From positions 22,955-86,954 of the forward strand of contig CABZTA010000001.1 of the NCBI GenBank assembly GCA_902528485.1: DNA of 64,000 bases. Reading direction: 5' to 3'. Origin of the DNA: an uncultured SAR86 cluster bacterium (GTDB lineage Bacteria > Pseudomonadota > Gammaproteobacteria > Magnimaribacterales > AG-339-G14). Below, in pieces: positions 22,003 through 39,165 of the stretch (positions within the stretch are counted from its first letter, which is position 1; the number at the start of each line of letters is the position of its first letter). The notes under the pieces were generated by a model. That model was given only the letters and a program-made list of their open reading frames with translations, was not told the DNA's origin and ran no database searches. The position numbers and the translations under genes were made by a program.

Positions 22003-22078
22003 TGGAGCGAGTAACGGGGTTCGAACCCGTGGCCTCGACCTTGGCAAGGTCGCGCTCTACCAGCTGAGCTATACTCGC
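22003..22078 (-). tRNA. tRNA-Gly (GCC)
   Basis: The reverse complement folds as a cloverleaf: acceptor GCGAGTA/TACTCGC, anticodon arm CGACC-TTGCCAA-GGTCG, T arm ACGGG-TTCGAAC-CCCGT. CCA is encoded. Close to E. coli tRNA-Gly(GCC). Confidence 0.93.
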
Positions 22079-32084: not shown

Positions 32085-32112
32085 TTTTTGAATTCTACCT
32101 TAAATTTATCCA

Positions 32113-32145
32113 ACAAAAAAAAGGGAGGTTAAAAAACCTCCCTTT
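32113..32145 (-). terminator. rho-independent terminator of the small YRG-repeat ORF
   Basis: On the minus strand: AAAGGGAGGTT-tttt-AACCTCCCTTT followed by a T9 run, 17 nt after the TAA at 32162. Confidence 0.7.
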
Positions 32146-32161
32146 AATTCATAACTTTCAG

Positions 32162-32323
32162 TTATGCAGCAGTCTTGACACCACGGTAAATACCAGGTGT
32201 TTTTGACGACTTTTTGACAACGTTTGCGTTGTGCTTAGTTCCTCTGTAGTTTAAGTCAGAAGCCTTTTCAGACTTTGAATTAACATCAGCAGAAACTTCA
32301 ACGCCTCTATAAAGAGTAGTCAT
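32162..32323 (-). CDS. unannotated 53-aa protein with three YRG repeats (DUF4278 / downstream-peptide-like)
   Basis: Hand translation: MTTLYRGVEVSADVNSKSEKASDLNYRGTKHNANVVKKSSKTPGIYRGVKTAA*. A GGAGGAA Shine-Dalgarno lies 5 nt upstream of the ATG and the ORF has its own terminator. It is below the ORF-track length cutoff. Confidence 0.65.
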   Translation of the reverse strand: MTTLYRGVEVSADVNSKSEKASDLNYRGTKHNANVVKKSSKTPGIYRGVKTAA

Positions 32324-32383
32324 ATCGTTCCTCCAGTTTTCGTTTCAAACGTACATATACCAATTGGTATACACCCTTATCAA

Positions 32384-32520
32384 CGCGTTCCTTCGGTAGA
32401 TATTCGGTCTCGTTCCCAATTTCTTGGTACTTGCTTACCTTTCTTTAAGATCAAAGAAAGAGGTTTTCCTATCTCCCTACTTCCGTTTAATAAACTTAAA
32501 GAAGTTTACTAAATGAACGT
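32384..32520 (-). promoter_or_regulatory. glutamine riboswitch-like aptamer (glnA RNA motif / glutamine-I class), with an unusually long second arm
   Basis: Minus strand, in order: CGUUCA (32519-32514); a 12-bp hairpin (32513-32486); ACGGAAGUAGGGA (32486-32474); a long arm closed by AGAUA/UAUCU; CGAAGGAACGCG (32395-32384). CGUUC/GAACG can form P1. Blocks and order match the remembered consensus. Confidence 0.6.
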
Positions 32521-32526
32521 AAATTG

Positions 32527-32535
32527 ATTATACCA
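32527..32535 (-). promoter_or_regulatory. extended -10 promoter (TGgTATAAT) for the riboswitch/small-ORF unit
   Basis: The minus strand reads aTGgTATAAT. The predicted TSS about 7 nt downstream coincides with the first nucleotide of the CGUUCA block. No good -35 element. Confidence 0.45.
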
Positions 32536-32544
32536 TTTTTTTAA

Positions 32545-32584
32545 AAAAATAAAAAAAACAGGCGAGATAAAATCTCGCCTGTTT
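32545..32584 (-). terminator. rho-independent terminator of glnK-amtB
   Basis: CAGGCGAGAT-aaa-ATCTCGCCTG stem, followed on the minus strand by a long T-rich run, about 20 nt after the amtB stop. Confidence 0.7.
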
Positions 32585-32603
32585 GCGGGAGGAAAAAATA
32601 AAC

Positions 32604-33839
32604 TTAGTCGAACTCTGGGTAAGCCTCTACTCCAATTTCAGTAGAATCAAGACCTGCCGCTTGTTCTTCATCAGTTGCTCTTATTGCTAAGAACATATTG
32701 ATGATGTAGATAACTATTAAGCTAGCAACATAAGTGAATCCTGCGATAGCAAGAACTCCGTAGAACTGCCATAGGAATGAAGCATCCGAAGTGAAAGGAA
32801 CAACCATTACTCCGTAAATACCTACTGTACCGTGAGCAGAAATAGCACCAACTGGATCATCCATTTTTAAGGTTTTCTCAAAGAATAATATTGAGAAGTA
32901 GACTAGGACACCACCGATTGCACCAATGATTACTGCTTCACCACCTGTAGGTGCGCTCGGACCTGCAGTAATAGCTACTAATCCAGCAATGGCTCCGTTT
33001 ATGGCCATTGTGACATCCGATTTGCCAGTTAGAATAAGGCTTGTGAGTAATGCGGCAACTACACCACCTGCTGCAGACATGTTTGTATTCATGAATACTT
33101 GACTCACTGCGATTGCACTTGCTTCATCACTGATGATCAATTCTGACCCACCGTTGAATCCAAACCAACCTAACCAGAGTATCCATGCTCCTAATGCAGC
33201 GATCGGAATATTTGAGCCTGGCATCGCATTGACTGAACCATCCATACCGTACTTTCCTTTTCTAGGACCGAGAACTGTGACTAAAGCTAAAGCTGCAGCC
33301 GCTCCACATAAGTGAACTGTTCCTGAACCTGCGTAGTCTGAATAACCTCCAGAGCTTAAGAAACCGCCGCCCCAATTCCAATAACCTTGAATAGGGTAAA
33401 TGAAACCAGTAAGGATAATAGCGAACAAGAAGAATGGTAAAAGTTTCATTCTTCCGGCTACGGCTCCTGAAACAATAGACATAGCTGTTGCAACAAAGAC
33501 TACTTGGAAAAAGAAGTCAGCTTGTTGAGAATAGTCCATACCATATTCCATTCCAATTTCTTCGATAGGAAGAGCTGTTGATAGACCCCATGAAGATCCA
33601 ATACCAGGAATAACTCCATCGATTAGTGAGGATCCGGGATACATTAAAATAAATCCGCATGCTAGATACATGATGCAAGCAATTGAATATAAACCTAAAT
33701 TTTTTGTTACGATTTCCGATACGTCTTTCTTTTGAACCAATCCAGCTTCCAACATTGTGAAACCAGCAGCCATAAACATAACTAAGGCACCAGCCATAAT
33801 TGCGTAAAAGGTATCTACCGCAAATTTTATTTCATCCAT
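32604..33839 (-). CDS. amtB: ammonium transporter
   Basis: 411 aa with Amt/MEP signature regions (DYAGSGTVHLCGAAAAL, WFGFNGGS, GAISAHGTVGIYG). Confidence 0.93.
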   Translation of the reverse strand: MDEIKFAVDTFYAIMAGALVMFMAAGFTMLEAGLVQKKDVSEIVTKNLGLYSIACIMYLACGFILMYPGSSLIDGVIPGIGSSWGLSTALPIEEIGMEYGMDYSQQADFFFQVVFVATAMSIVSGAVAGRMKLLPFFLFAIILTGFIYPIQGYWNWGGGFLSSGGYSDYAGSGTVHLCGAAAALALVTVLGPRKGKYGMDGSVNAMPGSNIPIAALGAWILWLGWFGFNGGSELIISDEASAIAVSQVFMNTNMSAAGGVVAALLTSLILTGKSDVTMAINGAIAGLVAITAGPSAPTGGEAVIIGAIGGVLVYFSILFFEKTLKMDDPVGAISAHGTVGIYGVMVVPFTSDASFLWQFYGVLAIAGFTYVASLIVIYIINMFLAIRATDEEQAAGLDSTEIGVEAYPEFD

Positions 33840-34335: not shown

Positions 34336-34410
34336 TGGCGTCCCCTAGGGGATTCGAACCCCTGTTGCCGAGATGAAAACCCGGTGTCCTAACCACTAGA
34401 CGAAGGGGAC
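34336..34410 (-). tRNA. tRNA-Glu (UUC)
   Basis: Reverse complement: GTCCCCT...AGGGGAC acceptor, anticodon loop TTTTCAT, T arm AGGGG-TTCGAAT-CCCCT. CCA is encoded. Near-identical architecture to E. coli tRNA-Glu. Confidence 0.93.
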
Positions 34411-39079: not shown

Positions 39080-39165
39080 TGGTGCCGGAGGAGAGACTCG
39101 AACTCTCACGCCTTGTGGGCACTCGATTTTGAATCGAACGCGTCTACCAATTCCGCCACTCCGGC
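39080..39165 (-). tRNA. tRNA-Leu (CAA)
   Basis: Reverse complement: GCCGGAG...CTCCGGC acceptor, anticodon loop TTCAAAA, long variable arm, T arm GAGAG-TTCGAGT-CTCTC. CCA is encoded. Confidence 0.92.

Follow-up and report, generated by a model that had tools for sequence, protein, structure and literature searches.

A putative glutamine-I riboswitch with a conserved long P3 arm ahead of a small DUF4278-like gene beside glnK-amtB in SAR86, with relatives in marine phages

In cyanobacteria, a glutamine-I aptamer (glnA RNA; Rfam family RF01739) lies ahead of a DUF4278-type gene in 25 of 28 genomes (PMC6212724, PMC6316151). The two DUF4278 leaders tested, those of Synechocystis gifB and Prochlorococcus MED4, are glutamine-ON switches (PMC6212724). 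DUF4278 makes up the N-terminal part of IF17 (GifB) and the whole of the Prochlorococcus 'IF17-like' proteins, and the C-terminal, IF7-like region of IF17 is needed to bind and inactivate glutamine synthetase (GS) (PMC6212724, PMC6316151). The main reviews regard control of GS by inhibitor proteins, together with its glutamine riboswitch, as restricted to cyanobacteria, and metagenomic copies as being of unknown origin (PMC6212724, PMC6316151). RF01739 matches have been reported in OM43 phage Melnitz and in pelagimyophages (SAR11 myophages; PMC9004378) and in T4-like cyanophages (PMC9964418), including one of 99 nucleotides (nt) in S-CREM1, the length of which implies an extended arm; the family was also mentioned in passing, within deletions, in SAR86 metagenome-assembled genomes (MAGs; PMC12379486). 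Here we describe a 64,000-nt stretch of DNA from an uncultured SAR86 cluster bacterium (contig CABZTA010000001.1, positions 22,955 to 86,954; hereafter the window). Downstream of glnK-amtB, its minus strand carries a glutamine-I aptamer with a conserved 79-nt insertion in the P3 arm, followed by a DUF4278-like open reading frame (ORF) of 53 amino acids (aa). Arm and small ORF were not described in the three phage and SAR86 papers (PMC9004378, PMC9964418, PMC12379486), and a 2024 comparative SAR86 study did not mention riboswitches. An earlier sequence-only reading of the locus had considered the class known just from cyanobacteria and unassigned marine reads, a view that the phage and MAG reports make outdated.

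The window was scanned on both strands against 4227 Rfam families. Besides three tRNAs, the scan returned a single match, to RF01739, with 37.6 bits (gathering score 35 bits) and E = 1.5e-4; in a local scan of 551 nt the E value was 1.3e-6. The model is covered end to end (1-53 of 53), with the 79-nt insertion in the second arm. No match to RF01704 (Downstream-peptide, glutamine-II) was found at E <= 10 in 32100-32650. The sequence-only reading had recognized the aptamer from the blocks of the glnA RNA consensus, and its identification was borne out by score, core nucleotides and covarying homologues: all blocks lie on the minus strand where it had placed them, in the same order, and the first hairpin has the predicted 12 base pairs (bp; 32513-32486), one of them being G-U, so that the helix is 'perfect' only with the wobble pair counted. 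All consensus core nucleotides are present in the alignment to the model. The strand CGGAAGUAGG and the 3' core CCGAAGGAACGC (32396-32385) are identical to the Rfam consensus, the former being invariant in aligned homologues. Likewise, the E-loop strands GGAAGUA and GAAGG at the base of P3, which would adopt a non-canonical geometry, are consensus-identical and invariant in 67 homologues. The ligand contacts of the class (PMC6698751) and its pocket, which consists of the C1:G59 pair, C58, G22 and the G23-C60 linchpin pair (PMC6698751, PMC11477058; for the role of the linchpin C, PMC11477058, PMC6212724), have predicted counterparts in C32519, G32386, C32387, G32484/G32483 and C32385, all of which are present.

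On all sequence and structure criteria applied, the element belongs to the glutamine-I class, from which its large conserved P3 domain sets it apart. Glutamine-I aptamers are typically compact (about 55-61 nt, with a short P3 hairpin), a size that is not strictly defining; since the window aptamer has a 79-nt P3 insertion, it is called a variant of the class. The construct used for the glutamine-I crystal structure reportedly had its P3 loop swapped for a U1A loop. Very probably, the element is a genuine glutamine-type riboswitch that controls the 53-aa ORF.

Homologues covary in P2 and in the helices of the arm. In a model-based alignment of 78 distinct sequences, which is fitted to the model structure, P1 was 100% paired and, as it never varies, contributed no covariation evidence. 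P2 was 99.5% paired with both-side changes at all five modelled pairs, and the P3 base pairs occurred as GC, AU and GU types. Overall, 93.3% of cells paired in this alignment, a level that none of 500 shuffles attained, against 73.0% after shuffling and at most 53% after sliding; the covariation score was 0.524 versus 0.172, and 21 of 27 pairs showed both-side changes. RNAalifold, run on an unguided MAFFT alignment, found helices A, B and C again, each with compensatory changes. When pairs were counted with the conserved strands as anchors, 99% were canonical for helix B, 97% for helix C and 93% for P2; shifted registers gave 39-71%, the values for P2 being 42-44%.

The insertion forms a predicted three-way junction of constant plan. 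The P3 base pairs lead into helix A, which has a conserved purine-purine mismatch, and on to the junction strand GAAAACC; then follow hairpin B, always opened by a U-G pair, the junction strand nnAGCwAGUA, hairpin C, the junction strand GAAC(A)GAGACCGA and the return strand of helix A. In 67 aligned sequences the junction strands are invariant or nearly so while the helices differ. The sequence AGUA...GAA flanking helix C echoes the E-loop arrangement at the P3 base of the parent aptamer, and would make this part of the arm E-loop-like. Searched alone against Rfam, the arm matched no family (best E >= 0.37, to irrelevant families); Rfam gives no support for reading the arm as a further, diverged glutamine aptamer or as some other described RNA.

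A covariance model of the long-armed subclass (R1) scored the window aptamer at 106.8 bits, with the window sequence included in its training set. The RF01739 threshold was passed by all 20 long-armed loci tested (37.6-55.4 bits); annotation pipelines therefore label them plainly 'glutamine riboswitch'. Twelve SAR86 species genomes, marine metagenomes and viral contigs of IMG/VR contain the arm; in IMG/VR, an arm-specific pattern gave at least 120 matches, at least 118 of them with a complete aptamer and 65 distinct among the matches listed. A pattern scan of metagenome contigs yielded 120 loci, in most of which the pattern had bridged two short aptamers in tandem. About 24 were true long-armed loci; 16 had the window-type arm and seven had other long inserts. 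The long second arm had been proposed to mark a distinct subclass, and its conservation across SAR86, metagenomes and viral contigs supports a distinct, conserved subclass of the glutamine-I aptamer. At least three other, unrelated long P3 inserts (L093-type, L157-type and L145) were also seen, all ahead of YRG/DUF4278 ORFs. In L093, Rfam prefers an alternative 47-nt aptamer that uses GGAACG within the insert, which hints at two competing aptamer folds.

The leader is 197 nt long, and leader and ORF lie between amtB and a PhyH-family gene. As noted in the sequence-only reading, an extended -10 element (TGgTATAAT) is present; the predicted transcription start is at about 32520, one nt ahead of P1, and the relatives L001-L004 and L015 all have TGnTATAAT at an unchanged distance. 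A simple sigma-70 scan reported no promoter at the leader because a -35 box is absent. The terminators postulated on both sides correspond to hairpins at 32584-32556 and 32145-32120, the first of which is invariant in SAR86 relatives. The intergenic gap is not 'empty', as had been assumed: it holds the 53-aa ORF, preceded by a GGAGG Shine-Dalgarno (SD) sequence. With a DUF4278/YRG ORF behind the leader, the arrangement is that of riboswitch and gifB and not that of an orphan leader. It is best explained as a self-contained transcription unit with its own promoter, leader, ORF and terminator.

The ORF product, MTTLYRGVEVSADVNSKSEKASDLNYRGTKHNANVVKKSSKTPGIYRGVKTAA, matched Pfam family PF14105 (DUF4278) with 23.8 bits and E = 5.7e-5, residues 1-50 aligning to profile positions 1-56 of 57. 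Of ten cassette homologues, seven passed the family cut-off (26.3-43.6 bits), and taken as a family the cassette proteins are clearly DUF4278 members. The window protein also matched the phage families phrog_5049 (E = 2e-6) and phrog_545, neither with an assigned function; no relative was found in the PDB. Small and basic, the protein has three conserved arginines in its YRG repeats. At least 60 distinct homologous cassettes retain the ORF. In all SAR86 and metagenome members with a readable downstream region, the long-armed aptamer is followed by an ORF of 35-60 aa that has two or three YRG motifs and stands behind GGAGG, and an ORF with at least two YRG motifs follows 60 of the 65 distinct viral aptamers among the matches listed. 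A small-protein profile found DUF4278-like ORFs in SAR86 loci only after long-armed aptamers. Since the DUF4278 profile spans nearly all of the 53 residues and no IF7-like C-terminal region follows, the window protein resembles the Prochlorococcus 'IF17-like' proteins and not IF17 proper. The GS signature motif NGSG[MCL]H is absent from all frames of the window, and GS is therefore not adjacent. Our best guess, drawn by analogy, is that the small protein may restrain ammonium assimilation, given the glnK-amtB neighbourhood in one SAR86 clade, the glutamine sensor and the IF17-like precedent.

Features of the riboswitch-ORF unit and of related loci (window coordinates unless a locus is named)
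Feature	Position	Strand	Remarks
Intrinsic-terminator-like hairpin ending the glnK-amtB operon	32556..32584	-	13-bp stem, 6 G-C pairs, U-run
Extended -10 element, TGgTATAAT	32527..32535	-	Read from sequence
Glutamine-I aptamer (RF01739), full-length	32382..32521	-	37.6 bits
P1 5' strand, CGUUC	32515..32519	-	Pairs with GAACG 32390-32386; C32519 equivalent to ligand-contacting C1
P2 hairpin, 12 bp including one G-U, loop CUUU	32486..32513	-	Sequence and covariation
Core strand CGGAAGUAGG	32476..32485	-	J2/3 G22/G23 equivalents, AGUA half of E-loop, first two P3 pairs
P3 insertion, 79 nt, three-way junction	32397..32475	-	RNAalifold, anchored counts, model-based alignment
Helix A, AGAUA with UAUCU	32474-32470 with 32402-32398	-	Closes the arm
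J(A/B) GGAAAACC	32469-32462	-	
Helix B hairpin UCUUUCUUU/AAAGAAAGG	32461-32438	-	
J(B/C) UAAGCAAGUA	32437-32428	-	
Helix C hairpin, GAAA loop	32427-32416	-	
J(C/A) GAACGAGACCGA	32415-32404	-	
3' core CCGAAGGAACG and linchpin C 32385	32385..32396	-	P3 closing pairs, GAA half of E-loop, P1 3' strand
P0 domain, CGUU 32385-32382 with AACG 32344-32341	32341..32385	-	Covariation in 72 leaders
Hairpin enclosed by P0, GUAUACC-AAUU-GGUAUAU	32372-32355	-	Compensatory changes in L015, L020, L091
Ribosome-binding region CUGGAGGAACG	32326..32336	-	SD GGAGG 32334-32330
Regulated gene, 53-aa basic protein, three YRG repeats	32162..32323	-	DUF4278-like, IF17 N-terminus-like
Terminator-like hairpin ending the riboswitch-ORF unit	32120..32145	-	11-bp stem, 5 G-C pairs, U-run
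Tandem short aptamers in other SAR86 species	L062 1758-1894; L063 2046-2222; L070 28-81; L073 2046-2221; L074 2048-2223		
Loci with other long P3 inserts	L093 1791-1913; L096 4408-4532; L191; L192; L157 2152-2264; L178; L145 924-1051		
ACUGAAUACUGAAUACGCCGCC..GGGGGGUGUAUAGCUUAGGCU..GUAUUCAGACUU element	L091 2933-2992; upstream flanks of L114, L179, L123		

The housekeeping synteny had suggested a heterotrophic gammaproteobacterial host, in agreement with an AmtB that is 100% identical to that of the SAR86 single-cell genome AG-461-A21 (L005). A search with the window AmtB retrieved 80 loci from species-representative genomes, nearly all of them labelled SAR86 cluster bacterium, and close relatives share the order secDF, suhB, trmJ, tRNA, glnK, amtB, small ORF, PhyH, TonB receptor. 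The intergenic region is 97% identical per column among five close relatives. Compared with L015, identity amounts to 91.6% for the leader, 79.8% for amtB, 73.8% for PhyH and 70.5% for the small ORF; a non-coding leader that outconserves its flanking genes argues for selection on the RNA itself. The long-armed aptamer stands directly after amtB in 11 species-level genomes (L005-L013, L015 and L081) and at a different site in L020. Apart from five species with tandem short aptamers, treated below, no glutamine aptamer was detected within 3 kb of amtB in the remaining approximately 60 SAR86 species, the regular-expression scan and model R1 agreeing on this distribution. Nitrogen supply of SAR86 depends on amtB and on GS and glutamate synthase (GS-GOGAT; PMC11582366). 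The three tRNA genes of the window are on the minus strand (34339-34410, 22006-22078 and 39083-39165); the first, flanked by glnK and a trmJ-like gene, also occurs in relatives, where it is conserved (L015 2421-2492).

In five other SAR86 species (L062, L063, L070, L073 and L074), two or three classical aptamers with a short P3 are arranged in tandem upstream of a gene for a Gcw_chp (PF09694) signal-peptide protein, which is followed by amtB. glnK was not found in four of these five loci, and L062 had a distant match. These bacteria are probably hosts of some of the 'tandem glnA RNAs before ammonium transporters' known solely from metagenomes. Metagenome loci L085-L204 comprise 96 tandem short arrays, 91 double and five triple. 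The first ORF behind them encodes AmtB in 27 cases, a type I/II GS-like protein in many and Gcw_chp in two, or is a short ORF; some have 40-55 aa and end in ...YITDNPYYP, and two of these carry a single YRG. A protein with at least two YRG motifs followed none of the 96 arrays. As the gene classes behind long-armed and tandem short aptamers differ, arm length tracks the class of the regulated gene in the data examined.

Several viral contigs with the window-type arm carry recognizable phage genes. L193 encodes terminase large subunit, portal/adaptor and major head protein, L091 and L144 encode a T4-type late sigma factor, a UvsW-like helicase and major head protein, and L140 encodes ribonucleotide reductase. 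Of 93 distinct instances, 21 (e.g. L098, L140, L144 and L173) have a T4-type late promoter box, TATAAATA, whose end is 5-7 nt upstream of CGTTCA; with this spacing the transcript would begin at the first P1 nucleotide, as it would with TGnTATAAT in SAR86. In T4-like phages the cassette would thus be a late gene, transcribed from the first nucleotide of the aptamer. Cultured phages of INPHARED gave no match, either by blastn with the window unit and a phage-type unit or by tblastn with two cassette proteins, and no named phage is therefore tied to the window arm type. ARAGORN found no tmRNA around five phage-type cassettes, so that the link to tmRNA seen in Melnitz was not reproduced in these contigs. 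Genes for IscU-like (NifU_N) and IscA-like (Fe-S_biosyn) proteins lie near the cassette in phage contigs (L193 11330-12095, by Pfam), and L170 2748-3167 and L091 392-724 have N-termini similar to these; they are possible auxiliary metabolic genes near a glutamine-controlled ORF. The spacer that separates the riboswitch from the late-sigma-factor gene (L091 2933-2992 type) holds a conserved, potentially hairpin-forming sequence, ACUGAAUACUGAAUACGCCGCC..GGGGGGUGUAUAGCUUAGGCU..GUAUUCAGACUU. ARAGORN found no tmRNA there; the sequence may be a terminator or some other RNA.

A further helix, P0, begins at the linchpin C. In 72 distinct leaders, three nt from this C onwards complement three nt directly before the conserved AAAAC-YGGAGG. 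The first pair is C-G in all 72; the second is G-C in 32, U-A in 19 and A-U in 21 and thus canonical throughout; the third is U-A in 53 and A-U in 17, i.e. canonical in 70. Longer versions (CAUAGG/CCUAUG, CGGAAUG/CAUUUCG) also occur, and the SD of L096 itself serves as the 3' strand of P0. In addition, the ribosome-binding site (RBS) segment CUGGAGGAACG of the window is complementary to ACGUUCAUUUAG (32520-32509), i.e. to the P1 5' strand and the base of P2 (-11.3 kcal/mol by RNAduplex). The unconstrained minimum-free-energy fold of the leader uses this pairing, and the predicted unpaired probability of the SD is 0.27 unconstrained and 0.77 with P1 enforced. The pairing is present in the window clade, in L015 and in L091-type leaders and is not family-wide. 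The leader holds four copies of (G)AACG (32415-11, 32390-86, 32344-41 and 32329-26) and three of CGUU (32519-16, 32385-82 and 32351-48), and therefore several mutually exclusive helices besides the two modelled are possible, including a local CGUU-UGA-AACG hairpin (32351-32341). Two other candidate pairings were discarded: the conserved CCUC of the arm as an anti-SD is unsupported, and pairing of the helix A 3' strand with AAAACUGG fits AGUUU-type arms (L091) and not the UAUCU type of the window when the sequences are inspected, and was rejected as a general mechanism.

Taken as a whole, the locus is probably a long-armed glutamine riboswitch unit that acts as a translational ON switch and whose product would damp ammonium assimilation. 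In the described aptamers, ligand binding induces the long-range G23-C60 'linchpin' pair (PMC6698751, PMC11477058), the A-minor contacts between P2 and P3 break and P3 moves (PMC11477058, PMC5393176). According to Ren et al., as related in PMC6212724, the ligand also causes a short helix next to P1 to melt, and in Synechocystis the linchpin C and the nucleotides that follow can pair with the RBS (PMC6212724). By analogy, glutamine at high concentration would occupy the pocket at P1 and J2/3 and lock P1, and linchpin C 32385 would be recruited to the long-range pair with a J2/3 G and leave P0. In the window clade, the P1 5' strand (32520-32509) would be kept off the SD and spacer (32336-32326), which would turn translation of the small protein on; ON polarity is the reading we lean towards. 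At replete nitrogen the product may then damp ammonium assimilation through GS or through the neighbouring GlnK/AmtB, as suggested by IF17 and the IF17-like proteins. In the least certain step, the P3 extension would most likely tune the docking equilibrium between P2 and P3, with which ligand binding is in competition, or couple movement of P3 to the platform; because P3 is displaced when the ligand binds, a large structured extension of this helix could set the switching threshold or provide such a coupling. Confidence in what arm and protein do is low.

The following points weigh against this reading: (i) in window-class leaders, 5 nt separate the 3' strand of P0 from the SD downstream, and melting of P0 does not obviously expose the SD; (ii) across the family, none of four aptamer segments was more complementary to the RBS than shuffled controls; (iii) full pairing of CGUUC with the spacer was found in 7 of 32 distinct RBS strings, no better than for permuted pentamers; (iv) nearest-neighbour folding can model neither E-loops nor ligand energy; (v) the alignment behind the model-based covariation values was fitted to the model structure; (vi) the DUF4278 score of the window protein, 23.8 bits, falls just under the PF14105 cut-off of 25.3; (vii) the N-terminal part of IF17 that is equivalent to DUF4278 is dispensable for GS inactivation (PMC6316151). 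In view of points (ii) and (iii), the anti-RBS model is clade-specific at best.

That the RF01739 match is a chance resemblance in AT-rich intergenic DNA might be suspected from a score just 2.6 bits over threshold. However, an E value of 1.5e-4 for the whole window, dozens of covarying homologues, long-armed loci that all pass the threshold and a cyanobacteria-like gene association refute this idea, to which we attach next to no weight. It is also very unlikely that the SAR86 cassette is a decaying phage remnant (moron) without cellular function. Such an origin would account for the abundance of the cassette in phage contigs, and its differing sites in SAR86 (behind amtB in the window clade, at other places in L020 and L200) are consistent with horizontal movement; yet the leader is intact, passes Rfam and outconserves neighbouring genes across 11 species-level genomes, and ORF, SD, promoter and terminator are all kept.

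Polarity and the role of the arm leave more room. An OFF switch or a control of mRNA stability, by which glutamine would lower expression of the small protein, fits the ligand-free, P0-closed state, in which the SD is not obviously occluded. It would also match tandem short aptamers ahead of amtB and GS genes, where repression by glutamine is expected; the aptamer can probably drive either polarity. Against it, the Synechocystis and MED4 leaders are ON (PMC6212724), the linchpin strand of L096 pairs directly with the SD as expected for ON logic, and formation of P1 frees the SD in folding predictions for the window clade; we consider OFF control improbable. Equally doubtful is a second sensory domain in the P3 insertion, i.e. 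a nested aptamer for a metabolite reporting nitrogen or carbon status, or a protein platform, with two inputs to the switch. Three near-invariant junction strands of 7-12 nt between covarying helices are typical of ligand pockets or tertiary cores, AGUA...GAA around helix C repeats the parent E-loop arrangement, and the arm matches no known Rfam family. Purely architectural peripheral domains, however, also have conserved junctions; moreover, the unrelated inserts of the L093 type, the L157 type and L145 precede the same kind of ORF, so that length or bulk may be selected, and the arm was not seen outside the glutamine aptamer in the data examined. The translational ON switch with a peripheral, tuning arm thus stays the preferred explanation.

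With these loci, two aptamer architectures are now assigned to named heterotrophs, tandem short aptamers ahead of porin-amtB and a single long-armed aptamer ahead of DUF4278. SAR86 is among the most abundant bacterial groups of the surface ocean, and marine phages, too, often carry the long-armed cassette. Questions that become testable are the role of DUF4278, the handling of host nitrogen status by phages and the effect of a peripheral P3 domain on a low-affinity riboswitch. Caution is advised with phage labels such as 'riboswitch-controlled tmRNA', as a small downstream ORF may be unannotated. Speculatively, glutamine-triggered YRG/DUF4278 proteins could serve outside cyanobacteria to curb ammonium assimilation in general, with GS or GlnK/AmtB as target; SAR86 would use them and so would many marine phages late in infection, with the P3 junction module setting the threshold or adding an input. 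If so, phages would reprogramme host nitrogen flow late in infection, and the P3-grafted junction would be a nested-domain riboswitch architecture not previously described for the glutamine-I class.

Among described systems, the phage riboswitches (PMC9004378, PMC9964418) share RF01739 and the marine phage setting with the long-armed cassette, many window-arm contigs encoding terminase, portal, major head protein or T4 late sigma factor. Those papers give the Rfam match alone, with control of tmRNA or lysis proposed, and do not describe the P3 junction domain or the YRG/DUF4278 ORF. The tandem glnA RNAs found in marine metagenomes before amt, glnA, PII and gltB genes (Weinberg et al. 2010, PMC2864571) belong to the same aptamer family and a marine heterotroph setting; they consist of two or three short aptamers upstream of amtB, porin or GS genes, whereas the window has a single long-armed aptamer downstream of amtB. 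Glutamine-II RNAs (RF01704) ahead of IF17-like genes (PMM1846/Yfr6) in marine picocyanobacteria likewise control a short DUF4278-only protein in a streamlined marine organism, with the same ligand and the same ON logic as predicted for the window, but form a pseudoknot instead of a three-way junction. A fourth system is the glutamine-I riboswitch that cyanobacteria such as Synechocystis have in the 5' untranslated region of gifB (Klahn et al. 2018, PMC6212724; for the structure, Ren et al. 2015). It shares the core CGUUCA / ACGGAAGUAGG / CCGAAGGAACGC, the P1-P2-P3 three-way junction with E-loop, the linchpin C after P1 and a short helix below P1, and in both a single aptamer opens a monocistronic mRNA that encodes a small DUF4278 protein. 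Unlike the classical aptamer of about 55-61 nt, the window aptamer has a conserved 79-nt three-way-junction insertion in P3; its P0 3' strand is parted from the SD by AAAAC; its 53-aa protein lacks the IF7-like, GS-binding C-terminal part of IF17; and the hosts of the long-armed form are the heterotrophic gammaproteobacterium SAR86 or marine phages.

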